Shown in pieces: positions 37,908 to 53,975 of a stretch of 64,000 nt of DNA; position 1 is the stretch's first letter, and each line of letters starts with the position of its first letter. The position numbers and the translations under genes were made by a program. The stretch lies in sequence record CP033547.1; one strand, given 5' to 3'. This DNA comes from a plasmid. The notes beneath the pieces were generated by a model. The model ran no database searches, was not told the DNA's origin, and worked only from the letters and a program-made list of their open reading frames with translations.

Positions 37908-38618
37908 GATGAATTTAAACCTCCTTGATGAAGAATCAATCCAACCTTCTGAACCCACGCCATGTGATTTTTTCAAAGGTGAAAATGCTATCAAAAAGCT
38001 AAACAGTTAGGATTACCTGATCTCGAGTTAGTCAGAAACGCAATTATGATCGGTGATGCTGACTATAGAACAAATACTCACTATAACCGTGCACGCTTTA
38101 TTGCACGATGGGGAAAAATTGGAGAACAGATTGCTTTACTGCTTCGACAATCTGATCCTGCTTGGATATTCCACAATGACAGCCAGCCAAGAATTGAGAA
38201 TACAGTAAAGAAAATACAAATTATCTTTATGAGCGGGAATATTGCATTGGGGTTAGCTGATCAAGTTGTATCAGCACACTGTGAAAAAGGATTAATGACA
38301 TTAAATAATATTAAGGAGAATCAGTCTGCTTATGATGATGAGACAAAATTGAGAACATGGATTTTATACTTTCCTTCAGCATCACATCCAGCCTATAAAG
38401 ACATTGATATCCCAAATATTCCTTTTGAATTTGCATACCCAACTAGCTTCGTACAGGACTTAAAAGCGAAAAAAATTTCAATTTTACCAAGTGACCATAC
38501 TTGCAGAATTGCATTTGAAATAGATAATACAGTTCCTGTAAAAACTGATCCTAAGCCAGTATTGGAACCATCTAATGAAATTAAACCAGATGATTTTGAT
38601 ATTCAGCTTGTAGTTTAA
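37908..38618 (+). pseudogene. Hypothetical protein (~236 aa), frameshift near 38010; upstream partner of HTH-ImmA/IrrE gene
   Basis: MNLNLLDEESIQPSEPTPCDFFKGENAIKK / ...LPDLELVRNAIMIGDADYRTNTHYNRARFIARWGKIGEQ... Confidence 0.4.
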
Positions 38619-38630
38619 TCTGAGGTTAAT

Positions 38631-39736
38631 GTGTTTAATAAAGATCGTTTACGTATTGCTAAAGAATTACGAGGACTTAGCAATACCGATTTCGCAGAAA
38701 AATTGAGTTGCTCTATCTCTAAGGTAAAGCAACTTTTAGACGTGGATAAAGAAATCAATGAAAATGATCAAGATGATATATGCCGTGTATTAAATTTACC
38801 CAAGTCATTCTTTGCAGGTAATGACACACAACCACATGAAACAGACCAAATCTTCTATAGATCGGTTGCTCGTATTAAAGCACAGCATAGAAAAGCTAAT
38901 GAGGCATATACTCTTTTAGCAATAAATATTAACAAGTACTTAAATCAGAAAGTAAAGTTACCTACTTTTCACCGTCCTGATTTAGATATTACTGAGTTTT
39001 TGGGTGAATCTAAGTATGCCGATCACCTAGCGTCAGAGTTGAGAGGTTTATGGGCTTTAGGTAATCAACCTATTAATAACATTGTTTCGTTGTGTGAGCT
39101 AAAGGGAATCCGTGTCTTTAGATTACCGACTGAAATTCGAGAAATTGATGCACTATCTTTTTTTGATGATGAAAGTGGTAGCCCTTTCATATTTCTAAAT
39201 ACATTTAAGTCTGCCGAAAGAGCCCGCTTCGATTGTGCACACGAACTTGGTCATATCGTTATGCATACGCATAACAAAAATTCGTGTCGAGAAAGATAAT
39301 CGTGTTCTCGAAACTGGAAGCAGATCAATTTTCATCTGAATTTTTAATGCCAACAGATGCATTTCTTTCTACTGCTCCACGCTATTTTTCACTAGAAAAT
39401 ATGATTGAATATAAAAAGATTTGGCGAACATCCCTGAAGACTATTAACTATAAAGCTCACAAGCTTGGATTAGTTAGCGATTGGGTTAATCGTAGTAACT
39501 CTATAAAGATCAATTCATTGGGTTACAATATTAATGAACCTGAAGAAACTCATCGAGATGAGAGTTTGATGTTGCCTAAAATTATCTCTGTTTTAGCCTC
39601 ACAACCATCATTTGATAAAAATCAAATGCTTGATGAAATTGGAATCGCTGAAGAAGATTTTAATCAATTAACATTTGATGCCTTAACTAAAGTTGAGCCT
39701 CCTAAGAAAAAACATAAGTTATATATTGTCGAGTAA
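38631..39736 (+). pseudogene. Fused XRE-HTH / ImmA-IrrE (COG2856, DUF955) zinc metallopeptidase, frameshift near 39290
   Basis: N-terminal HTH LRIAKELRGLSNTDFAEKLSCSISKVKQL; HEXXH motif CAHELGHIVMH. Confidence 0.7.
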
Positions 39737-39975
39737 TACAAACCTTCCTTAAAAATAATGCGCCTCACGGCGCACTATTTATGCAAAATCCTGAATAAAT
39801 TTTTATGACTTCACGCCCAACGTAGTTTTGCATCCCATAAGTCATACTGAAAATGTAACTTGCCCCATCATGACTTTTTTCATATAGCCTACTTGAACTG
39901 ACACCATAAATCCCATGTGTTCCATGAAGCATCGTATACAATTTCAGATAAATTCTTTAGTTATGTGATCATACA

Positions 39976-40617
39976 ATGTGCTCAAATTACCTATTTCCAA
40001 GTAAAAGAAATTTGACACTTTTAGGTGTCGATACCAGCCTGTTCAATCTTGAGCTTAAGGACCATGTGTTCCCTTCTTACCATGCCCCGATCATTTTAAA
40101 TGGCTCTGAACATTTGGAACTTGATATAGCAAAGTTTGGCTTGCTCCCGAGCTGGGCAAAAGAGTTGAAATTCAGTAGTCATACCTATAACGCTCGTACC
40201 GAGTCTGTAGCAGATAAGCCCAGTTTTCGACATGCTTGGAAGTACAGCAAGTTTTGCCTTGTGCCTGTACAGGAGTTCTATGAACCCAAATACATCAATG
40301 GCAAACCACACTGGTACACCATCAAGCGTAAAGATGAACAGCCTTTTACAGTTGCTGGTATCTATGACGATGCTGTGATTAATGGCAATAAGGTACGTTC
40401 ATTTTCAATGCTCACCATCAATTCTGATCATCACCCATTCATGAAGCAGTTCCATGCACCGAAGGATGAGAAGCGATCCATCATCGTGATTCCAGAGCAG
40501 TACAGAAAAGACTGGCTAACAGCCGATCATGAACATGCGCATGAATATTTCTTTCAAATGCCCGATGAATTCGTCACATTTCCACGCGATGAGCAGAAAC
40601 AAAACGTCTTATTCTGA
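39976..40617 (+). CDS. yedK: SOS-response associated peptidase (SRAP/YedK family, abasic-site processing protein)
   Basis: N-terminal Cys2 (MCSNY...), ...LLPSWAKE...YNARTESV... conserved SRAP core. Confidence 0.7.
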   Translation: MCSNYLFPSKRNLTLLGVDTSLFNLELKDHVFPSYHAPIILNGSEHLELDIAKFGLLPSWAKELKFSSHTYNARTESVADKPSFRHAWKYSKFCLVPVQEFYEPKYINGKPHWYTIKRKDEQPFTVAGIYDDAVINGNKVRSFSMLTINSDHHPFMKQFHAPKDEKRSIIVIPEQYRKDWLTADHEHAHEYFFQMPDEFVTFPRDEQKQNVLF

Positions 40618-40729
40618 CGCATCCTTGTTTATCCACAACTTTTTTAAATTTGAATTTTAAACGCTGTTAGTAATATCCTATTTAAACAAATTCTACTTCC
40701 AAACACGCCTCGTAGCGTAGGAGTATCTC

Positions 40730-41356
40730 ATGTCTAAGAAGTTGCCTATTTACTTCTCTGACGACGCATGGTCATCTTTACAAGAGCTCATGGGTCCAGA
40801 GGGTAAACCAAGTCCTACCATCAACACCGTGCTTGAACAAATCGCTGTTCAAAATGAGCTTGTTGAAAAATTAGGGCTTACTGCTGTCCTACCCAAATCC
40901 AAAGTATCTATTCCCGTCTCTTTAGAGCGTATTTCTGCAGGTCCGGCCTTCAGCACCAAGGATGAGCAAGACAAAGCACTCGATCTGAATGAGTTCCTGA
41001 TTCACAACCCTATTTCTACTTTTATTGCCTATGTAGACAGTGAATCCATGCTCGATGCTGGCCTAGAGATTAATGATCCAATCATTATTGATCGCAGTAT
41101 TGAAGCCAAGCATTACGATATCGTGGTTGCCCTGATTGATGACAATGCCTCGACCATTAAGCGGCTGATGATCACCAATAAGATGTCCAAGTCTGAAATC
41201 AAAGAAATATTTGGAGATGAAGATTATCCGCTTCCAGAACTTTGGTTGAAGGCTGAAAATTCGAATTACAATCACATCATTCCTGATGATAGTCAGACCA
41301 TATCAATCTGGGGTGTGGTGACTTTTAATTTAAAGCGTATTTATCACCGCTCATAA
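40730..41356 (+). CDS. umuD: UmuD-like S24 peptidase with long N-terminal extension (UmuDAb-like)
   Basis: ...ISAGPAFSTKDEQDKALDLNEFLIHNPISTFIAYVDSESMLDAGLEINDPIIIDRSIEAKHYDIVVALIDDNASTIKRLMI... Confidence 0.8.
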   Translation: MSKKLPIYFSDDAWSSLQELMGPEGKPSPTINTVLEQIAVQNELVEKLGLTAVLPKSKVSIPVSLERISAGPAFSTKDEQDKALDLNEFLIHNPISTFIAYVDSESMLDAGLEINDPIIIDRSIEAKHYDIVVALIDDNASTIKRLMITNKMSKSEIKEIFGDEDYPLPELWLKAENSNYNHIIPDDSQTISIWGVVTFNLKRIYHRS

Positions 41357-41370
41357 AAAGAAGAATAACC

Positions 41371-42668
41371 ATGCAAAGTGAAAATGAAATATTCGCGTTA
41401 GTCGACGTGAATAATTGCTACGTCTCGTGTGAGCGTGTGTTTAATCCTGCCTTGAATGATCGCCCAACCATTGTGCTCAGCAACAATGACGGCTGTGCCG
41501 TGGCCAGAAAGCCAGGAAGCGAAAGACTTAGGCATCAAGATGGGTGTTCCTGTATTCCAAATTAAAGAGCTGATCAAACAACATAACATTCAGGTGCTAT
41601 CCAGTAATTTCTCCTTATATGGCGAAATGTCCAAGCGCTTTATGGAGCTGCTTGGGGACTATGTTGCACCAGGAGATCAAGAGGTCTATTCCATTGATGA
41701 ATGCTTTCTGGAAGCTCACAGCTTACGAGCATCTATTTGACCTGACTGTATATGCTCAAGACATGAGGGCTAAGGCTTGGCGTTGGTTAGGCCTACCCTG
41801 CTGTATTGGAATTGGTCGCTCTAAAACCGAAGCCAAGATTGCCAATCATCTCGCCAAGAAAAACAAGTTCTTCAATGGGGTCTGTAATCTGGCCCATATG
41901 GACCCATGCTCTACAGAAACGCTACTCGCGCAGGTTGATGTGTCTGAGGTTTGGGGCGTAGGCAGACAGAACTGTAAGAAGCTCAATACTATGGGTGTTC
42001 AATCTGTGCTGGATCTGATCAATGCCAATCCTAAAGAAATCAAAAAGCAGTTTAGTATCGTGATGGAAAAGACGGTGCTTGAGCTACAGGGCCTTTCTTG
42101 TATTGACCTTAGTGATGATACTGTAGCGAAGAAGCAAATCATCAGCAGCCGTTCATATGGCAACCCAGTGTATGAAATGGATGACATTAAAGCTTCGGTT
42201 CGGCTTTATGTGGCCAGAGCCGTGAAACGAATGCGGGAAGATGGCTCAATCTGCAAGATGATCGGCGTGTATATCCAAACCAGTCGCTTTGATAAGACAG
42301 AGCGCTACTCGCCTTACATCGTCGTTCAAATGCATGAGCATACGGATGATCTACTGCTCATCACCAAGGCCGCGATGAAAGGCATCGATCAGATATTTAA
42401 GAAAGGCTTTAAGTATAAAAAGGCGGGAATCGTGCTGCTCGAAATTACAGATCAATCCAAGTTTGTGCCCGATCTATTCACGGACTATTCACATAAGCAA
42501 GAGCGAGAAAGGCTTTCAGATGCCATCGAAGCCATCAGTGAACGGTTTGGGAAGAATCTCGTCACGCTAGGCATTGCCAACAATAAAGAAGCCACATGGC
42601 ACATGAATCAAAACCTTAGATCACCTTCGTATTTAACCAAATGGTCTGACTTACCAAGAGTAGGATAA
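41371..42668 (+). pseudogene. umuC: Y-family DNA polymerase V subunit UmuC, two frameshifts
   Basis: MQSENEIFALVDVNNCYVSCERVFNP...; ...KDLGIKMGVPVFQIKELIK...; ...GIGRSKTEAKIANHLAKK... GVGRQ... Confidence 0.8.
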
Positions 42669-42672
42669 AAAC

Positions 42673-42891
42673 ATGCACTTATTTAAATTAACTGACGAAC
42701 AACTCGCACAAATTCTTATCCCGAAACGATTTGTACCACCTACTCCACCTGAACATGAAGGCAAGAATATGGTCTATGTATTTGATAGTGAGGATAAGTT
42801 TGAACTGACTTATGATGAGCTGGTGGAGATCATTAGCAAAGCAAGGATGGCTGGTCCGAAGTTGATACCTGTCTTAGGCACCGTGAATTAA
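42673..42891 (+). CDS. Hypothetical 72-aa protein downstream of umuC
   Basis: ORF only, 4 bp after umuC stop. Confidence 0.3.
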   Translation: MHLFKLTDEQLAQILIPKRFVPPTPPEHEGKNMVYVFDSEDKFELTYDELVEIISKARMAGPKLIPVLGTVN

Positions 42892-43604
42892 ATTGTGCAG
42901 TGTTCGCACGCCACTTGAAACATAACTTGATTGGAAATGAATTTGGGCTGAGAAAAATTCAGTTCAAATTTAACCTGACGGGCACACTAAAAAATGGGTA
43001 ATTGTCAGATCGAGTTTGGACTACAACACTTTAGCTCATCGATTTACCAAAGTGCTAATCTTTACACTATTGTCTAAAATCCAGTGACCAAATTGTGATG
43101 CTAAAGCTTTTAAATTCCCTTTATTATGAATCAAAGTTAGTATGATGCTTTTCATAAAGACAGTTTACTTATAACCAGAGAGATTTTTAAACAATTCCCC
43201 TTTTCAGTTTGCTTAGGCTATTTGATCCAGAGTTCATCTTTTTGCATCATTTTTAACATTAAATTAAATATAACCAGCGGAGTAACATTTTTTTTTGTTA
43301 GAGCCGACAACTCTTTGAAAACTAAATTTAACGGTTCGCTCAGGAGCATCCAAATTAACTGGGTAGTTTTGTTTTTCTAAATACAGATGATCTCCTAACA
43401 TTGGCTCTATACCAGTAATAAAATTAACAATTTGTTGCTCATCACCTTTCATTCGGCATTGAAAATGTAGAAAATTCTTACGCAGTTTTCCAAATAATAA
43501 TAATATTTTAAGCGCCTTAACCATGTTCTTTTCTTTCAGTGCATCTTGCTGCCTATCATCTTTATAATGAAAATCAAGGAGAGGAATTATTTCATCTGGA
43601 CGAG

Positions 43605-44959
43605 TCAGTTTTTAGCCTTTTCGTAAAGTTCATCAAACCAACTCTCTTCTAAATTCTTACTATAAACATAATTCGTTTTTAAATTAAATTTTTGGCGATC
43701 CATCCATTTAGTGCTCATCCATTGACATCGTTGCATCCATTCTTGAGCTTGGGTATCTTCGCTTAAACGACCTTCTCTAAAACTTATCAAACGTTGAAAA
43801 GGTGTCAGAGTACTCTTCTCTATACTAAACTTCTTTTCTTGTCGGCCAGCCATCGTAACTGGCTGTGTTTGCTGATAAGAATTAAACCATTTCTGTTGCT
43901 GAGTATAACGATTTAGGTTTATGTAGTCTGTACTTGACTTCACTGGACTAAAACACTGTTCTAATACTTTTTTTGAAATGATACACGGCGAATTATAAAT
44001 TCGATCGACTGCTAATAAATCCAAAACATGAAGGTAATTTGAAGCCGTTTGCTCAATACTGCTATGCCCCATCCAAGAGGCGAGCACCTGCCATTTATGT
44101 TGAATAATCTCTTCTTGAGCACGTGCTTTCATACCAAACAATAAATCCCTCATCTTTTTGCTTTTACCCAAGGACAATCTGTGTAGGTCTTGATCATTTC
44201 TTTTGAACCGAGCAAAGTTATTGCTAGATAGTTAGCAGCACTGTGGCGTAATGTATGAAAACTAAAGCCATGATGCATACCTAATATTTGACTAAACAAA
44301 TCTACTGTAATTTTGCTGATACATTGATCAGTTAATACACGATGATTCACACTAAAAAGTTGATCATCCTGCTGATTAACCAAATATTGCTCATAACGAT
44401 GTTGTATGTAACGTTGTACTACTAAAAACTCATGTTCTGACAATGCAATTTTCAATGGTATTTGACGATTCGCACTTCGCGTTTTCAGACGGCGATATGA
44501 ATTGTCTTGGATATGAAGCGTGATATTATTAAAAACTGTATTTTTCTTTTTCTTTTATAAAAGTAGCTCTGGGCAAATAATATCTTGTATTTTAAGACAA
44601 CGAACTTCATTTAATCGAAGTCCAGTTCTATAACTTAGTAAATACATCAGCTTTAAACAACTCAGATGATCGACCCACTCTGATGCCGTTGGCTCTTGAC
44701 TTAAATTTTCTAGTTTTTCCAATAATTTGCCAAATAGCAAAGGACTCACTAGCCGTGCATTGCAAATTTGTAAATGCTTAAAACTTGAATTCTGTAACAC
44801 CAATACCCCTGGAGCATCATAATTCTCTATACAGAATTGATGAAAATCTTTTAGGCGACCAAAACGGTATTCTGCGCTTTGGTGCATCTTACGAGAGGTT
44901 TTTCCTTTCACCGAATCTCGTTGAACTGCTTTTTCATCACGTTCACTGCTGTATTTCAA
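43605..44959 (-). pseudogene. Tyrosine recombinase catalytic region split over 3 ORFs
   Basis: YRTGLRLNEVRCLKIQDI (Arg I), HTLRHSAANYL (HxxR), MGHSSIEQTASNYLHV (Tyr). Confidence 0.6.
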
Positions 44960-45057
44960 TAGCTGCCGATATAAATCCTCATAGTCATCTATGGATTGTT
45001 GCTTTAAATCTAATTTATTGAGCCAAATCTCAAATATAAATTCTTTGCCAAACGATC

Positions 45058-48000
45058 CTAAGTAGCTTTCAATAGTTGATAATTGAAGCCCTCGTTTTTT
45101 AAATGCATTAACCAGTGAATTAAGCGTAGTTGAGCATCAATTAAAGACTTTTCCTCCGTATTAGCATCAACTATCTTCTCCTCTAACACCCTTCTAGTTT
45201 CTTGCCAAAAACGTAGCGTGCGTTCTTCTTTATTCCTCTTTTTATCTAAACGCTCAACTTTTTGACCTTTACGTTTCTTTTGACCAAACAACATCAACTC
45301 ATACGGAATCGTTTGTAATTTGCTTTGAACAGTCGGAACTTCAGGAAGTAACTGCTCTTGTTCAAAATGAATAGGGCGATTATCTGGTTCTGTGACTTGA
45401 TTGTAATCATTATTCCACAGCAATCTAAATTCGGATGGCCTTAAAGCAACAGTATTAATCTCTTGCTGGAAGCACATTACTCAAAAATATATCTATGCTG
45501 AGGTTTGGATTAAATTCGAGTACCATTTGCACATCATTAAATGCACGAAATCCACGGCGTTTAATTTGATATTGCAGATCCCCAAGACTTTTTTTCCTGC
45601 CTATCTTACTCAAGCTTTCTAAAATACAATCTTCAACTGAATGTTGCAGACAAAATTCTTTCTGAGTAGCTTTCAACTTTTTAAATATTGCAAAATGAAC
45701 TGCGCATATGGGTTAAAAAAAAACATGTTTCCATTGGTACAACTTTCCCTGTTCTACATCGTTGCCATATTGAGAGTTTTCAACACGATAATGTAGTAAC
45801 AATGGATTAGTGATTTTTGTAGTCCGAATGGTATAACCGAAAACAATTCAGATCTGTACCAAGCTCAATGGCCTCCTGCAATTGCTTCTGAATAGCAATC
45901 AAATGCTGTTCATCTGCACAGCCTGAAATATATATAAAACTTAAGCATAAATTTCCCCATAAGTACTTTGGTTCATTCCAATATTCAAATGAATCTTGCC
46001 AATACTGCCTTAATTCCTTAAGTACATGGATATGTAGATGCCCCTGTTCTAACCGTGACTCTGTACTCTCAATTTTTCTAGGCAGTACGATCCGTTTAGT
46101 ATGTGGATTTAGCTTAATTCTGTATGATTTTTTATCTACATTCTGGTTGAATTGCTTCCTTCTTTTATTAAATTCATCTTCAGTAAATTGCATCAGTTTT
46201 GATTGTTCGTCTCGGCTCAACTTTTGACTCAAACAATCAACACTATCTTTAATGTCATGCCATTTTTCAGCGATCTGCTGATCAAGTTTTTGCTGCATTT
46301 CTTTCGTCAATACTTCCAGGTGGAGAAGGCTGTCTATCTAGCGACTTTTTCACCATTTTATGAATATCAACAAATAGATCATCTAGTTGTGGTTTTATTA
46401 GTTCTTTGATTTTTGCATACAACTATTTTCGCTCTAAGTGTTTAATCGATAAAGATTTGACATTATCTTGCAATTGCTGGCGGGCTTGCTGTACATAGAC
46501 ATTCGGGATAAGTGAAGAATGCGGATGAAAAGCCTCTCGGTCACGTTGGTCATGACCATACAGGGCCTGAATTAAGTGAAAAGCTAATGCTGGTTTACCC
46601 TCTTGCTGCTCATGCATCAAAAAGTTCATGTCAAAATGACGTAACCAATTCGAATACATATTCTTTGGAAAGACTCCTTGCATATATGAATTCACCCATT
46701 TTCTCGATAAAGGGATTAACTTAATTTTCCTGCTCTGCCATTCTTTGACAGTTATCGGCAAGATATCTTTACTAAAAATGACCTTACCAAAAGATCATTT
46801 ACAGTTATCTTCTTCTTTGCAAAGACTTGTCTAAAAAATGAACCGTACGCTTCAATAATTTGTTCTAAAAAGGCAGTGTAATTTTGCAGTGTTTTTATGA
46901 AAAAAATCAGATAATGGGATAAAGCGACCATCCTTTCTTGCCTTACTATTTTTCTTATCATTCACATATAAAAGCTTGAGCTCAACACAATAATCATCCA
47001 AATTCCCCAACAGGTTTTTTTTAGGCCGACTTGCCAAACTCAACAAACTGATATGCCACATCCAACACGCATATGCATTAAGTTGATTAATAATGTGCTT
47101 ATCTTCTTGGATGTTTTCGTGACAATGTCTATGTAAAATATGGAATTGCTCTTTCACAAAATTGGGTTCAAGTGCCAGTTGGCTCCCTATCCTTCCTATA
47201 GATAATGCAGATTGCACTTTGAATTGTTGTTGCAATATTTTTAGTTCAGCCGTGTCTTCAGTAAAATGTGTGGAATGTGGTGTAAGTGCTTTTTTCTAAA
47301 AAGGCTAGATATGTGCTACTGAGTTGAGTTTTCGGTAGCCCGCCATAATAGATACCAGGCATGTGATGCTGACTATCCCGCCCAGCAATTACATGAGCAA
47401 GATATTCATTATATGTTTCATAATATATATGAAAATATAATTGAGCCTGCAGTTTTTCTACAGTGATCGAACCTACAAACCGATTATCAAGCCAATTCTT
47501 AAGCTTGGTATTAATATAAGCTGAAGATATAGATGGATTATCTCCTTGCTCGATGTAGTCAAACCATGCCGCAGGTAGATGTAGTTGATGCGACATCTCT
47601 TCATTCCATCGCACATGATTAAGACGCTGTATTTTCTGCTCTGAAATTTTTAAATCTAAATTGAGTAAATATTCCCGTCGTTTTCGTGAACCTTTTTGGA
47701 TCAAAATTCCATCTTGAATAAGCTCGTTAAAATTCATCAGTGCAACGGGTGATAATCCTGTCAACAGTGATAATAAACATGCTGCAGCGATTGCAGCATC
47801 TTTCCAGTTTCCAAATAATTCGGCTCTTAGTACATATACAACTTGCTTCCAGTACGTCCGGCGCTAAATAATGAGGATTTGTAATAAATGGAGCATGCCG
47901 GCGTTGGCGATGACGCGTGTAATGCGCAACATAATCACTAATTATATGATTAAATTGTTTAGTCTTTTCATCTTCTGAATATAACTCTACTTCCAGCGTC

Positions 48001-49244
48001 TGCAAGCTCAATTTCACCATCTTCATCTTTGTGAAGAGCGGCATCATGAAAACTGATTTTTGCGTTATATCCGACATCTTCTTGCTTACCTGATTTTATT
48101 TCACGAAATATTCTGACTTCGTTTTTAGTTGGCCATTGTAAAGCTTTCCGTTCTTTTGACTTACGTTGACGAAGAACAACACTACGATCATCTAGTCGTA
48201 TAAATATGATCAATAGTGCCGATAAATATTCAATTACTTTTATTTCTTGAAAATCATTAATATTAAAAAGTTGATTACGATCCTCGTTTTTCAAGCTACG
48301 TTCGTACATGACATAACGATTTAATAGCTTACTGCATTCTTCAAATAATTCAGCATGATTAGAATGCAGCACATATCGTGATACATAACGCAAGAGATCA
48401 CAGACCTGTTTTTTCTTATTCTCACCTTTAGGAATTTTTGAAAAATCTTGGTAATGTCGATAAGTTAAAAAACTTGCTTGCAGAATCAGATAACGTTGAG
48501 ACGACAGCTCTTGAGTATTACTAGTATCAGGAGATGCAAAATAACTTAAACAAGCTAGCAAATAATAATTACCAATTTGCCTCGTACTAGATATATAGCC
48601 GTATATCTGTTGCGCCTTCTCATATAGCGCATGGGCTTTTTTCACGTAAATCATCTGATAGATCGACAAATTGTGTATTCACAACATGATTGCGTAATAA
48701 ACAATAATCTTTTTGGAATTTTTCTGCTAAATCTAAGAATTGCTCTTCTGTTTCAATCTTTGGCATATTCGCTTTCGCTTAATTTTTTATCAAATTGCAT
48801 TGGTTAAATTCATTACGATCTGAACAATTTGGTAAAAGTTGATCTTTTATTGAACTCTTTGTCAGCTTAAAAAATCTAGCAAAAAAATTTAGCATCCAGC
48901 TCTTTCTGAGCTTTTCTCTCAAAGCACAAGTGTTGCTGTGATTTTTCGATAAAATCATCAAGATTATGTATCAACTGTAAGATTGCAACATAATTAGAAT
49001 GTACACGTAAGCATGGCTCCGTTTGCATTAATAGCAATATTTTTTGCCAAATTTTCACATAGATTATTTTGAACTTTGCTTGTACTACTACTTTCTGGCT
49101 CTGTTTAATCTTTTTGATTTTCAGTAGTTCTGAGTTAATTTTTACTATCTTAAATTGAACATTTTGTCGCTCAAAGCAAAAGGGCATGATAAATTGCCCC
49201 ATAAATATCTCTATATTTTTTACTAAATAGTCAAATTTTAACAT
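45058..49244 (-). pseudogene. Co-oriented run of >=11 abutting/overlapping frameshifted ORFs of unknown function upstream of the tyrosine recombinase (one or more large genes)
   Basis: ORFs 45058..45477 through 48876..49244 all on minus strand with minimal gaps; no recognisable motifs. Confidence 0.3.
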
Positions 49245-49516
49245 TTTTATCGATATAAAAAATGAGCATATCTTTGTATATTAAAATTCATTTAATTTAT
49301 CAACTAAATTTTCTCAAAATTACAATTATCAACAAATACATATGGTTTACTTATCATGGGTGGTCTAAATTTTAAGAATTCTTCCACTTTTTTTAGTTTT
49401 CTGTTATTACATGAAATAATACTGTTGCTTTCTATTTTGAAATATTAGGTGCAAGGCATTGATCAAATGATTCTCTGCTATACTTATTTCACGTATAGCA
49501 TCAATGGAGTTTAGAA

Positions 49517-49690
49517 ATGCTCAGAACCACTGAACAGAAAAAAAAAAATATATTCAAGCGACACGTGCGCAAAACTATCAAGCCAGCCTAAAGCTTGAAG
49601 GCATTACAACGACAGCTCAAATAACTCAACAGAGTAAAGCTGAAATCTTGCAAAAATATAAGAAATATTCGCAACCCGAATCTTAGTCAG
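49517..49690 (+). pseudogene. YhfG-like antitoxin of Fic, frameshift in A11 run
   Basis: ...ATRAQNYQASLKLEGITTTAQITQQSKAEILQKYKKYSQPES resembles YhfG NFQASRRLEGV. Confidence 0.45.
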
Positions 49691-49698
49691 GTGCATGT

Positions 49699-50297
49699 AT
49701 GGATAAATATGGGGAAATGGGTGATAGCCTATATTGTTACCCTGGCACAAACACCCTAAAGAACAAACTCAATATCCGCGATGAACATATTTTAGAGCAA
49801 GCCGAACTGGAACTCTCTGGATTGGCGAGCAGCCTAATTGAATATGCTGAACCACCCTACGACTTAAAATACTTAAAATCAATTCATTCACAGCTTTTTG
49901 GCGACTTATACGACTGGGCAGGAAAGTTAAGACAAATCGATATTTCCAAAGGTGACACCCGTTTTTGTAATTTTTCCCGTATTGAAATTGAAACCAATAA
50001 ACTACTCAAACCGCTTCAAGAAAAAAAAAATACTTTCAAGGCTTAGCACCACAACAACTGATTCCTCAACTTGCCGACTTGTATTGTGAGCTTAATGTCA
50101 TACACCCATTCCGTGAAGGTAATGGACGTACACAACGGATTTTCTTTGAGCATCTGATTGCTCATTGTGGTTATGGTATTGATTGGTCTCGCATTGACTC
50201 TCAACAACAATGGATTCAAGCCAATATTGAAGGTTTTTATGGTAATTTAAATCCATTAATTAAGATTTTTGAAATATGCTTTATTCAAAATACCTAA
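49699..50297 (+). pseudogene. fic: Fic-family AMPylase toxin, frameshift in A10 run (~50024)
   Basis: Fic motif HPFREGNGRTQR at 50100-50135. Confidence 0.8.
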
Positions 50298-50598
50298 AAT
50301 TTAAGTAGTCGAAGCCCACAATCCTTAATGAGCCATCATCTTTGCTTCAATCCACTGATTAATTTCCCAAATAAACCAACAATCACGATTCTTAGAAATC
50401 TCAATACTCTTCGGGTAATTTAGGATCGTAATATTCAGATTACTTATCCAGAATTGAATAGATCGTTAACTTAGATAGACTTTTAAGCAATGTAACTTGC
50501 CGCATGTTTATCAACATATGTCTCAAAAAGTCTGCCCATACATAGATTTATGGCGTTTAGTGCTTAAATTTCAGATTAATCTTCGTCTGATGACCTGA

Positions 50599-50904
50599 AT
50601 GGATGTTACAGATTACATGCAGGTGAATTACTCTGTGGCTGTATCATGGCTTTTGTGCAATCCAATCCATTTGATCCGAATGTTCTCTTTTTGCAATAAA
50701 GCAGCCTCTTCTGCTTTTCCTGAACCAACGAACTATGTCATTGATTTGATTCAACCGACAACAGTGATGCTGAATCAAATCTCCAAAGAAGGGATTAAAT
50801 GCAAGAAATGTGGTAAGAAAAAGATAGGGGATGGAAGTTATTATCCGTCTAATTTGAACCAGCCCATGAGTCGAGATCAGTTGAGTAAGAATCATTTTAA
50901 ATGA
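50599..50904 (+). pseudogene. umuC C-terminal remnant
   Basis: ...FPEPTNYVIDLIQPTTVMLNQISKEGIKCKKCG... parallels 17262..17741 and C-terminus of 41371..42668. Confidence 0.45.
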
Positions 50905-51129
50905 ATAAGAGAAGGATGGCTTACCTCACTTCTCCGAATAACAATGCTATGCTTTTCAACCAAGGTTATAAATTGGCAACTACATTTCATTCTTCTTCAT
51001 GCTGGTCCTATAGCCTGTAGACAATTACTACATCATTTGCATTCAATGCTCAATACAGCCTGTCAGCAGAACCGCAGCGATACTCTTTTTCGTGCATACA
51101 TGTAGTGTTTAAATCCATTCATTTTTCAA

Positions 51130-51365
51130 TGATCCTCTGCCGTTTATCACATTTATGGTCGATCTTTAACCTTGTGAAAAATGCACATACCGATCCCTTC
51201 AAACTGTCAAATTTATGTATGCGTGACATTTAAAGAAAATTATCTGATCAATTTTTTAGGTAAAATTCATCAAGAAAAAGTTATTATTATTCATAACATC
51301 ACCAATAACCACATAAAAACAATAATTTAATAAATTATTCTTCCAATTTTTTATATTTAGTGTTA
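51130..51365 (+). repeat. ~235-bp direct repeat copy 1 (diverged, ~75% identical to 53740-53975) flanking hipBA
   Basis: Shared blocks TGGTCGATCTT, CTTGTGAAAA, TAAAAACAATAA, TAAATTATTCTT, TTATATTTAGTGTTAT. Confidence 0.5.
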
Positions 51366-51904
51366 TTACCTCTAAATCCATGTTTACCACCTTCTATTAC
51401 ATAAGTAATTTAGAAGTATCCACGATATAAATTGCTTGCCCTCACACCTCTCCCCTCTCACGCCCAAAAAATTTATACTGAAAGGCAGATTAAGCCCGTT
51501 CGAGTTACATATAGCCGCATGCTATATTGAAAGCATTAAGAAAATATCCTCAATATTTATAGGATTTTTTAAAGTATGAACTAATTTTCGAAGAACCCTT
51601 TCTAAGTAATGTGACCTATTAGGAAAAATGAAAATACTGAAATCTCCGTATCAACAATCAGTCAAAGTACATCCTGATGATTTTCTGTAACCGATACCCA
51701 AGGACTATACCTACCCTTCTGATGTGCTGTGCAACAAAGCCCTCCTTAGCCACACTATAGCTATAGATTAATTCCATTATTTTGTGATTTAATTAAATTA
51801 TTCATTCTTAAGACCCAATTTAATGGATTTATATTTCACTAAACCAGAAGAAGTTGTGACTCTTTTTAGGTGAGCGTTTACGTAAGCAACGACTCTTTCT
51901 GGAG

Positions 51905-52129
51905 ATGTCTCAAACTGAGGTAGCAGCACGCGCTGGTGTCGGCGTGAATACAGTTTCGAATCTTGAAGCGGGACGAAATGTATCTGTTGAAAATTTAGTC
52001 CGTATTGCAATGGTCTTGGGTCGATTAAACGAACTTCAGGAACTATTTAAACCTCAGCTTAACAGTGTGAATGACATTCTTCGCTATGAGAGTCAAAGTA
52101 AGCGCCACCGTATTAAGAGGAAGGGATAA
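51905..52129 (+). CDS. hipB: HipB antitoxin (XRE HTH); reading frame extends upstream to ~51860 without ATG
   Basis: MSQTEVAARAGVGVNTVSNLEAGRNVSVENLVRIAMVLGRLNELQELF... Confidence 0.7.
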   Translation: MSQTEVAARAGVGVNTVSNLEAGRNVSVENLVRIAMVLGRLNELQELFKPQLNSVNDILRYESQSKRHRIKRKG

Positions 52130-53397
52130 TGCTCAATAGACTTAATGTTTATTACAACGGTTGGGACGAATCATGGTTATGGGGAACGCTGATTAGTTCA
52201 ACAGCCACGACAGGTAGACCCACCATTGCTTTTGAATATAGTCCAGAAGCAATACAGCAAGGTGTTGAGCTCTCTTCTTACTTGCTGCCTTTAAAAGGTC
52301 TACCATTCAGACAAGGTTTTCCTACTCATCAAATGGGACTCCCAAGGTCCAGTCTATGACGCTTTACCAGATGGTTGGGGCATGATGTTGATGGATCGAT
52401 ATTTCAAAAAAATTGGCTTAAATTCAGCACGAATTGGACCTTTGGAGCGTCTGACCTATATTAGTAGTCACGCAATGGGTGCCCTCTCCTTTGAACCTTG
52501 TGTTGCTGACATGCAAACCTCAGAAAATATCCCTTTACAACAACTGGCCCATGGGAAGTTCAAGAAGTACTCAAAGGTGAAGGTGGTGAATTTCTACAGC
52601 ATTTATTGGTCATGGGTGGCTCCCCTCAAGGTGCCAGACCAAAAGCGTTGGTTTACCGAGATCCTGTCAATTTAGAGTTTTCGACTCAAGATTCTGATCA
52701 ACATGAAGCCTGGCTGATTAAGTTTCCTGCTCAGCAAGAGCATCCTGAAGTCTGCGCCATTGAAGCCGTCTATGCAGAATGTTTGCGACTTTGTGCAATT
52801 GAGACTCCAGATACCCATTTCTTTAATTTGCCCAATGGTTTAACGGCTTTTGCTTCTAAACGATTCGATCGTCAAAATGGTATGCGGATTCCAATGCAGA
52901 GTTTGGCTGCATATACAGGAGCAGACTATAAAGTTCCAGGTAGCCTAGACTATCGCAATTTTCTCCGGGCAACCTTGATGTGTACGCAAGATGTACGAGA
53001 AAGATTGCATGCTTTTAAACGTGCTGTGTTTAATGTGCTTTTCAATAATCGGGATGACCATACTAAGAACTTTTCATTTCTCATGGAGAAAAATGGTCAA
53101 TGGAAATTGGCTCCAGCCTATGATGTGACCTTCTGCGAGGGTCCAGGTGGTTATCATCAAATGGACATTATGGGAGAAGCGCTCAATATTTCCCGAAGTG
53201 ACATACATAAACTCGGTACTTCAGAAGCTAATCTGACTACTCTAGAAGTCGATGAGATCATCTTGACCATGCGTGAAATTGCACTTCAATTTAGTCAAAT
53301 TGCGCAGCGCCTGTATCCCCATCAAATTCGAGAATCTACCCTACAGATGATTCAATCACGGATTCAACAGAATATTGATTTTTTAACTGAAACCTAA
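52129..53397 (+). pseudogene. hipA: HipA kinase toxin in 3 frames
   Basis: ...VMGGSPQGARPKALVY..., ...NVLFNNRDDHTKNFSFLMEKNGQWKLAPAYDVTF... Confidence 0.8.
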
Positions 53398-53739
53398 GCG
53401 TAAATATAAACTAAGCGCCAACCATCAACTGCAAATAGACTTTTGATATAGTTAGTCGCTACATAATCTGTAGAACCTGTGAATTAGCTCTCTTTATAAT
53501 CACGAATATTAGATGGATCACCGCCAAGATATATTCTGCAAACGTGAAATCACTACATCCAGATCGAAAATCACTAAGAAAAAACTGTCACTTAAAAAAA
53601 GGTCTGCACTATGGATAGATGCAGACCAAACTCTGGATAACTACCAGCACGAGAAATATGTCGCAATTTTGCATAGACATGAATTTGATAAAATCAGCCC
53701 AGAAAGCCAGAAATTCATAAAAACTATTTCATCAATCCC

Positions 53740-53975
53740 CTATAACTTAATCACGTTCATGGTCGATCTTAAATCTTGTGAAAAGTACTCATGCTGACCT
53801 AGCCAAACTGTAAAACTCATGTATTTATAGCCTTTAAATGAATCTTTCAATCGGTATATTTAAGGTAAAAACTAGTAATCAGAAGTTATTATCACCCCCA
53901 TATAAAACAAGGATCAACTTAAAAACAATAACTTAGTAAATTATTCTTTCATTTTTTTTATATTTAGTGTTATCC
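53740..53975 (+). repeat. ~235-bp direct repeat copy 2; ends exactly at junction with high-GC Tn5393 tnpA remnant
   Basis: see copy 1. Confidence 0.5.

Follow-up and report, generated by a model that had tools for sequence, protein, structure and literature searches.

Within a 64,000-nucleotide (nt) stretch of plasmid record CP033547.1 (hereafter the window), a block of the minus strand holds a three-gene operon, the trio, encoding a small basic protein of 154 amino acids (aa), a 779-aa protein, and a 1066-aa tyrosine recombinase. We consider it probable that the trio constitutes a heteromeric system for site-specific recombination through which plasmid modules are joined, deleted, and exchanged. 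The fragmented appearance of its genes in this record is artefactual. In the mechanism we propose, the 1066-aa recombinase would be the catalytic subunit and supply the nucleophile, Tyr795. The 779-aa protein would act as a partner subunit of recombinase fold that keeps an Arg/Lys/Arg/His pocket and has no conserved Tyr, and the small basic protein would serve in DNA binding or directionality. The locus would then be an array of modules, each ending in a recombination site, with toxin–antitoxin modules (yhfG-fic and helix-turn-helix [HTH]-hipA) adjacent to the trio. Recombination between two sites, or between a site and a look-alike core elsewhere, would lead to replicon fusion, adjacent deletion, or module exchange, and could produce the many sharp junctions found among Acinetobacter plasmids.

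A first-pass annotation, made from the sequence alone, had described the block as a run of abutting, co-oriented open reading frames (ORFs) expected to collapse into a few large proteins upon indel correction. Such a run is present: overlapping or abutting minus-strand ORFs of 41–233 aa occupy positions 43218–49244 at a 40-aa cut-off, and correction yields three genes, two of them large. The frames are indeed broken by indels, but alignment to pOXA58_005069 (locus L001), which is 99.7% identical to the window, attributes these to sequencing error rather than to biology. Over the 15.8 kb aligned, there is one substitution against 39 indel events, with 27 indels in homopolymers of at least four nucleotides, 8 in CTGAAG/CCWGG-like motifs, and 4 in shorter runs. 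RefSeq relatives contain three intact minus-strand coding sequences of 154, 779, and 1066 aa, the last annotated as "site-specific integrase." We judge the frameshifts to be artefacts because a single substitution accompanies 39 homopolymer or motif indels spread window-wide and because the RefSeq coding sequences are intact; on this comparison, the fragmentation is long-read basecalling error, and the genes are not decayed. That the block has truly been pseudogenized in this plasmid is scarcely credible. The three genes do carry ~20 frame-disrupting indels in the sequence as given, but umuC, fic, hipA, and intergenic DNA are broken by the same type of indel at similar density (3.3 per kb in the trio versus 2.5 per kb overall), and the clustering in homopolymers and a CTGAAG-type motif is typical of basecalling error at methylated sites. 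Of 18 CTGAAG/CTTCAG sites within the alignment, 6 have an indel. Single-base insertions recur at these sites (window 38211–53975; e.g., 39316, 41710, 45468, 46316, 47849, and 47993), which suggests that a methylated motif in the sequenced host disturbed basecalling, possibly through an Eco57I/AcuI-like methyltransferase. A practical consequence is that annotation pipelines lose all three trio genes in assemblies with such errors.

The recombinase motifs reported in the first pass lie where they had been placed (YRTGLRLNEV in ORF 44555–44959, HTLRHSAANY in 44150–44455, and MGHSSIEQTASNYLH in 43605–44177). The first pass had rebuilt a catalytic domain from the last three ORFs; the gene is considerably longer, taking up over half of the block. 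What had been read as a large unknown cargo upstream resolves into the N-terminal extension of the recombinase (~590 aa), its putative recombinase-fold partner, and the small basic protein. The 1066-aa protein matches Pfam Phage_integrase (PF00589) over residues 589–731 with 31.5 bits (cutoff, 27.1) and the PHROGs integrase family phrog_1 at 1.2e-16. None of R602, K645, H721, R724, H785, and Y795 varies among 18 homologs, the least similar of which shares 35% identity. These residues fall in a catalytic domain spanning residues ~590–800; the ~590 aa N-terminal and ~270 aa C-terminal to this core gave no matches. An AlphaFold model (mean predicted local distance difference test [pLDDT] score of 69) retrieved XerA, Cre, MRSA Int, and Tn1549 Int as the top Foldseek matches in the PDB, with a probability of ~1.0, 290–378 aligned columns, and E-values of 0.006 to 0.1 (0.7 for Tn1549 Int). 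With a domain score above threshold, the full set of catalytic residues, and a Cre/Xer-like two-domain fold, the protein is a member of the tyrosine recombinase superfamily. It is not an integron integrase, as it reaches only 16.8 bits against NCBIfam NF040815 (XerA/integron integrase; cutoff, 220). A phage origin was also considered and rejected. PHROG family 33072 matches the protein (L001 6220–9420) end to end with 2374 bits, yet tblastn against 50,697 deposited phage genomes returned nothing, and the family probably goes back to a prophage prediction or a plasmid-like record.

Searches of Pfam, NCBIfam, PADLOC, PHROGs, and PDB sequences gave no match to the 779-aa protein. When 1.84 billion representatives were searched with a profile, 216 relatives were identified at E ≤ 1e-3, with conservation mostly in the C-terminal half. 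In alignments of 64–70 of them sharing 14–25% identity, Y473, G526, R579, D602-K603, R613, R708-H709, and H737 are invariant, and W706, G736, and S749 are conserved in more than 90%. The consensus reads LxTGxRPV ... SDKExRxxxxxRxIPL ... NWxRHFxR ... GHE, with R579 in LxTGxRP and R613 in RxIPL. From their pattern, these residues appear to be the box I, β-hairpin Lys, and box II signatures of tyrosine recombinases. Within the predicted pocket, the first His of HxxR is replaced by Asn in 51 of 64 sequences. The nucleophile position (748) is Tyr in 33%, Phe in 30%, and His in the clade of the window, and no other Tyr after H737 is conserved in the 64–70 sequences. There is thus moderate support for a cryptic tyrosine-recombinase/topoisomerase-IB-like domain lacking a conserved nucleophile Tyr in the C-terminal half; the N-terminal helical domain has no assigned function. 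Two results weigh against the fold assignment: the model of the 779-aa protein has a pLDDT below 50 in the recombinase-like region, and its alignment to the recombinase with hhalign is non-significant, as is its best PDB profile match (E-value, 0.13). PDB sequence and profile searches with the trio proteins yielded nothing significant. Paralogy of the two large proteins found no significant support in a profile–profile comparison.

The first gene of the operon encodes a basic protein with an isoelectric point (pI) of 9.6 that matches no database family. Homologous small first genes occur in clades 1–3 of the trio (BLASTP, 1e-11 to 1e-29), and all of their products have a pI of 9.0–9.6. The 154-aa protein is presumably an accessory factor for DNA binding or directionality.

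The order of a small gene, a gene for ~775–833 aa, and a gene for ~1060–1270 aa is kept at ~40% identity in unrelated contexts and at ~19% identity on the chromosomes of Acinetobacter lwoffii and Acinetobacter sp. WY4. Stop and start codons within the trio abut or overlap, and other lineages encode partner and recombinase as a single fusion protein (P0283, 1924 aa, preceded by an abutting 207-aa gene; P0278; and P0306). Judged from this conservation, the three genes form a single, co-evolving operon unit, in agreement with the first-pass suggestion of a multi-gene system around a tyrosine recombinase. Searches of Pfam, NCBIfam, PADLOC, PHROGs, and the PDB linked no trio protein to an ordinary gene for replication, partition, or transfer.

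The 6.6-kb trio region matches 219 plasmid records, all from Acinetobacter, with query coverage of 80% or more in 185 of these. When one genome per species was scanned, 45 trio loci came to light, nearly all in Acinetobacter. Every relative with a name, even the most distant, belongs to the Moraxellaceae (Acinetobacter, Psychrobacter, and Moraxella), and nearly all are annotated as hypothetical proteins. A third homology search, made with a diverse alignment, was saturated by Acinetobacter matches and added nothing, and literature searches by accession found no paper mentioning the trio proteins in the library searched. Trio DNA 76–99% identical to Acinetobacter copies also occurs on short contigs labelled Kineococcus, a Chlamydiae metagenome-assembled genome (MAG), a Thiotrichaceae MAG, and a "Proteobacteria" MAG (L052, L055, L042, and L038); these assignments most likely reflect contamination or mis-binning, not host range. 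In p3ABAYE, the GR13 reference plasmid (NC_010404.1; L059 3156–5900), the large recombinase gene is not intact, its longest ORF being 914 aa, and is missing from the gene table; the 154-aa and 783-aa genes are annotated as hypothetical proteins.

An asymmetric DNA motif, TTCTTCCA-N17-GTTAT↓TAC (the arrow marks the junction point), lies ~135–165 bp upstream of the operon. Its conserved arm of ~35–40 bp, (T)AAnAATTnTTCTTCCA-N17-GTTAT, is on one side of the crossover, and only a short core, TA or TAC, is on the other. Three copies are present in the window, all on one strand (49379–49407, 51338–51366, and 53944–53973), against 0.06 expected, and none of 100 shuffles reached three. The first-pass annotation had envisaged attachment-site repeats flanking 43.2–49.5 kb. 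Such repeats are absent; one asymmetric site stands upstream of the operon and recurs rightward at 51.3 and 53.9 kb. The second and third copies each close a module within a ~225-nt element (Table 1). The two elements are 72% identical and have no Rfam match that would indicate a structured RNA. Related loci usually hold two or three co-oriented copies of the site, and the same inter-site segments reappear: yhfG-fic plus the 85-aa ORF (1957 bp) in 18 loci and HTH-hipA (2600 bp) in 14 loci. One locus (L031) has the trio and 2 kb of cargo bracketed by two co-oriented sites. The 225-nt element was found in 200 plasmid records, typically twice in each and all from Acinetobacter, a distribution close to that of the trio (219–226 records).

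The site also varies with the recombinase. Clade 1 carries TTCTTCCA..GTTAT. In clade 3, TTCTTCCA-N17-GTTAT stands at the operon-proximal break and abuts truncated IS3 and IS30 transposase genes (IS, insertion sequence). Clade 2 has a co-varying version, ATTCTGCA-N18-GTTA, with the break at the same place. The leader between the small gene and the site is conserved along with the trio in every context; a consensus scan for promoters and terminators was uninformative (17 found versus 26.5 expected).

Homology among plasmids breaks repeatedly at window positions 49407–49411. In junction alignments at site 1, ...ATTCTTCCACTTTTTTTTAGTTTTCTGTTAT does not vary, while at least 12 unrelated sequences come after it, and in 59 unique site contexts, at least 35 different right flanks begin at exactly one nucleotide. 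Canonical junctions read GTTAT↓TAC. Homology breaks also recur at 51366/51367, with alternative flanks after site 2, and at least 13 different flanks follow site 3, where the window and L001 diverge immediately. From that point (53974 on; GTGTTAT↓CCGCTCCGG), the window continues into high-GC foreign DNA (GC fraction of 0.62 at 54–55 kb and 0.57–0.61 at 58–60 kb); L001 continues with CCCATATACG..., leading to a Tn3-family transposase gene.

Three parental/recombinant reconstructions were made, and all are one-sided events at the site with shared cores of 5–7 nt. L008 shows fusion to a point inside a PPC-domain gene (shared core TATTACA), L010 a 4-kb adjacent deletion (shared core TG(T/A)TAT), and L026 an adjacent deletion whose partner has a GTTATTA look-alike close by. 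Other sites abut internal hipA sequence or truncated IS3 and IS30 transposase genes, joins that would represent secondary-site events. In L008 (NZ_CP121376.1), the trio (90.1–96.5 kb) and a 225-nt element (52.2 kb) are ~38 kb apart, the array apparently having been split by rearrangement at site 1.

Table 1. Positions in the window of the trio genes, the candidate recombination sites, and adjoining segments
Feature	Position	Strand	Remarks
Non-coding DNA downstream of recombinase gene	42987..43217		Alternative breakpoints at 43163, 43095, 43029, 43018, and 42987; 35-locus alignment
1066-aa tyrosine recombinase gene	43218..46418	-	Third in operon; ~8 ORF fragments in the window; mapped from L001 6220-9420
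779-aa partner gene	46423..48766	-	Second in operon; N-terminal helical domain and putative C-terminal recombinase/topoisomerase-IB-like half
154-aa small basic protein gene	48779..49244	-	First in operon; presumed DNA-binding accessory factor
AT-rich leader	49245..49378	-	Presumed promoter region, between the ATG of the small gene and the site; read from sequence
Site 1, operon-proximal	49379..49410		TTCTTCCA-N15/16-TGTTAT↓TAC; junction point after 49407
Module 1: yhfG (55 aa), fic (198 aa), 85-aa ORF	49408..51366	+	Ends in ~225-nt element 51143-51366 carrying site 2
Site 2	51338-51366	Same as site 1	Motif match; ends module 1
Module 2: HTH hipB-like (101 aa) and hipA (421 aa)	51367..53973	+	Ends in ~225-nt element 53747-53973 carrying site 3
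Site 3	53944-53973	Same as site 1	Motif match; ends module 2

The opposite side of the trio behaves differently from the site 1 side, and contexts on the two sides assort independently among loci. The non-coding stretch beyond the recombinase gene does not amount to a defined second end. Just past the recombinase stop codon, a segment of ~90 nt (window ~43125–43210) is variably present among loci and has an imperfect direct repeat, AAAGGGGAATT(G)TTTAAAA, on either side. A two-ended transposon was rejected, as terminal inverted repeats do not exceed chance, no further copy of the terminal 14-mer lies left of the trio, and the downstream breakpoints are multiple. A clean insertion into an empty site was likewise rejected, the two usable cases being one replacement and one adjacent deletion. 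Of the other candidates for this comparison, the transporter cluster of p3ABAYE is too divergent, and pAS967-1-2 has an IS66 element where the trio side is expected and is hence uninformative. In L053, where the IS30 transposase gene is truncated, its 3′ remainder was sought as a marker of a far end and is absent within the locus, and a break at +5811 in L041, considered as a far end, is only an IS26-family insertion.

These observations bear on the idea that the trio is one border of a larger island in the style of the GMT (GmtY/GmtZ/GmtX), SE (IntA-Tfp-IntB-Srap), or GInt (GinA-D) elements, with cargo such as umuDC downstream of the recombinase gene and a far end not yet recognized. In all three, the recombinase operon sits at one end and the attachment site overlaps the promoter region, as described for SE and GInt in Gammaproteobacteria, where the site lies next to the promoter (PMC10214605). 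The operon-proximal end of the trio is similarly sharp and its downstream DNA variable; umuD-umuC is next to the trio in three divergent clades; defense and toxin–antitoxin genes follow the trio in L053 and L006; and the bracketed cargo of L031 would fit an island. Nevertheless, left of the trio the window contains neither a far end nor a terminal inverted repeat, nor another copy of the motif, and where loci have more than 3–6.8 kb of downstream backbone in common, the upstream site is their only difference. Neither empty-site test revealed a clean insertion, one being a replacement and the other an adjacent deletion, and the extra site copies are on the promoter side, outside any such island. 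We regard this reading as improbable.

Comparison with the same elements separates the trio from them in composition as well. SE and GInt resemble it in having a multi-protein tyrosine-recombinase operon with a nucleophile-less fold protein and a small auxiliary protein. They have four core genes, however, including two recombinases with the RHRY residues, whereas the trio has three genes and one Tyr-bearing recombinase. Tfp and GinC are without the RHRY residues, whereas the trio partner keeps R/K/R/H. The small gene of the trio comes first, and its proteins are two to three times larger. For the trio, no two-ended element or circular form was seen, and its co-oriented sites bracket neighboring modules. 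GMT is likewise a three-gene unit of recombinase-family proteins with a small putative DNA-binding protein, found on plasmids and chromosomes of Gammaproteobacteria and associated with defense and toxin cargo (bioRxiv 10.1101/2023.03.28.534373). Its description sets the trio apart, with DNA_BRE_C in GmtY, Phage_Integr_2 in GmtZ, and a small StbA-like GmtX in the order Y-Z-X. The trio has the order small protein, 779-aa protein, and recombinase; its second protein has no Pfam domain, and no member matches Phage_Integr_2. GMT is moreover a mobile island whose circular intermediate enters an inverted-repeat naive site; at the trio locus, a two-ended island could not be delimited.

That the trio encodes the enzyme acting at these sites is what we infer from its adjacency to site 1, the clade-specific co-variation of the site, and the co-distribution of the two; the division of labor between subunits and a role in module accretion and plasmid remodeling are likewise our interpretation. 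Several points weigh against this interpretation. The link between trio and site is built from those three associations, and the most divergent chromosomal clade is without the motif, its break lying ~260 nt upstream of the small gene. Many plasmids stably keep three directly repeated sites. With an efficient recombinase this would not be expected, short of low or regulated activity or of counter-selection against losing the toxin–antitoxin modules. No circular module or clean two-ended insertion was found among the loci. Finally, no more than two principal module types were observed; most of the junction diversity would therefore consist of fusions and deletions rather than reflect a rich cassette pool.

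Another explanation is that the trio is a plasmid multimer or cointegrate resolution system like Cre-loxP, ResD-rfsF, or TnpS/TnpT-rst, with the operon-proximal site as its resolution site, and that the odd junctions are rare side reactions. The site adjoins the recombinase operon, as in many resolution systems, and some plasmid lineages, that of GR13-type p3ABAYE among them, almost universally have the trio. The independent assortment of the two trio sides is as expected from cointegrate formation and resolution. A study of GR13 plasmids also names a putative tyrosine recombinase, "tyr13," as a core gene without describing it (PMC9455709). Equating it with the trio gene is ambiguous, p3ABAYE having two candidates, a 400-aa arm-type integrase and the split large recombinase gene. 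A resolution system would have a single site per replicon, but two or three co-oriented copies per plasmid are usual, and an efficient one would delete the toxin–antitoxin modules that the three copies bracket within 4.6 kb. Related trios reside on chromosomes, and proteins of 1066 and 779 aa are far above known resolvase sizes. We consider a resolution function unlikely.

It is distinctly improbable that the trio is unrelated to the sites and serves instead in DNA damage or defense, linked to umuDC, or has a topoisomerase-like activity, the motif being a transcription or regulatory element or the target of another recombinase. PADLOC detected no known defense system. A regulatory motif fails to explain at least 35 unrelated sequences abutting one nucleotide with core microhomology, and the motif co-varies with the recombinase clade. 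No pdif sites, the targets of XerC/D, occur at these junctions.

The remaining known systems that we compared share particular traits with the trio. Tn554 (TnpA/TnpB/TnpC) has two recombinase-family proteins and a small third one, asymmetric ends without terminal inverted repeats, and short-core junctions. It belongs to Firmicutes, both of its large proteins have RHRY, and it is a two-ended transposon with a specific target, att554 (PMC10214605). The trio, in contrast, has a single catalytic recombinase, lacks a second end, and shows junctions with many different partners. Pdif modules share hosts and plasmids with the trio and are likewise modular segments bounded by recombination sites (PMC9455709), each site being a 28-bp sequence composed of a XerC arm, a 6-bp spacer, and a XerD arm. 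Pdif-like sites (ATAA-N6-TTATGTTAA) occur in the window at 1874–24283, with 28 found versus 7.6 expected, often paired at close range in opposite orientation; the region is typical of dif modules. A pdif/XerCD module was rejected at the trio locus, where no pdif site is present at 42.9–43.3, 49.4, 51.37, or 53.97 kb. The sequence of the trio site is unrelated to pdif, and a dedicated, plasmid-encoded recombinase operon adjoins it.

The organization of the locus is closer to that of integrons and of CIME/ICE accretion, in which a recombinase gene lies by a primary site and is followed by co-oriented sites that each end a module, with toxin–antitoxin genes in the array and use of secondary sites. 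The trio shares this layout, its three co-oriented sites ending the yhfG-fic and HTH-hipA modules, and the likeness is one of layout only. Its recombinase is not IntI-like, and its ~225-nt elements have one conserved arm and are not folded attC sites. Its modules have their own multi-gene operons, and only two main types are found. The Rci/sfx shufflon of R64 has a tyrosine recombinase, asymmetric sites with one conserved arm, and a 7-bp crossover core, which recalls the trio. Rci is a single ~380-aa protein, and inverted sites drive inversions of pilV segments, in which respects the trio differs. The trio is no member of the pdif, GMT, SE, Tn554, or integron systems, from each of which it departs in gene number or order, domains, site type, or integrase family.

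Several gene neighborhoods recur around the trio. In the window, umuD-umuC (S24 peptidase and Y-family polymerase; 40730–42891) is convergent with the recombinase gene; on the A. lwoffii and Acinetobacter sp. WY4 chromosomes, it is co-directional with the trio (L064–L066 15572–17469). A trio with only 42% identity fills that slot between umuDC and hipBA in L043 and L047, where homology of the flank begins within the recombinase gene, ~40 nt from its 3′ end. A TehB-like S-adenosylmethionine methyltransferase and an HNH-domain protein recur beside trios of different clades, upstream or downstream (L053 16666–18250; L064 6095–7734; L065 and L066 7209–8854; L040 and L041 at ~+5700). On the Acinetobacter sp. 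WY4 chromosome (CP053947.1; L064 1–5937), a type I-F CRISPR-Cas locus (cas1, cas2-3, csy1, and csy2) lies ~3 kb from the trio. The trio of L006 is surrounded by AbiEii, a UvrD-type helicase with a Zn ribbon, GmrSD, and HicB.

Beyond the recombination system itself, we tentatively raise a broader possibility, which we put forward with less than even confidence: that the trio represents an undescribed class of platform in Moraxellaceae plasmids and chromosomes. Such a platform would combine a giant heteromeric tyrosine recombinase, one-armed sites, a Tyr-less, topoisomerase-IB-like partner (fused in some lineages), and a small basic protein, and would capture, accrete, delete, and exchange modules, including toxin–antitoxin modules. 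It would resemble integrons and dif modules while being evolutionarily unrelated to IntI and XerCD, and may be a second major driver of mosaicism in Acinetobacter plasmids. The host plasmid lineages carry OXA-58, NDM, and other resistance genes, and their mosaicism is now explained mainly by IS elements and XerC/D pdif modules. If the proposal is correct, more than 200 sequenced plasmids would contain an additional, unrecognized engine of plasmid fusion, deletion, and module exchange, and the sharp junctions would offer a direct sequence signature for tracing such events. A two-subunit tyrosine recombinase in which one subunit has a phosphate-activating pocket without a nucleophile, acting at a one-armed site, would be unusual, and such an architecture could inform the evolution of composite active sites and target promiscuity.

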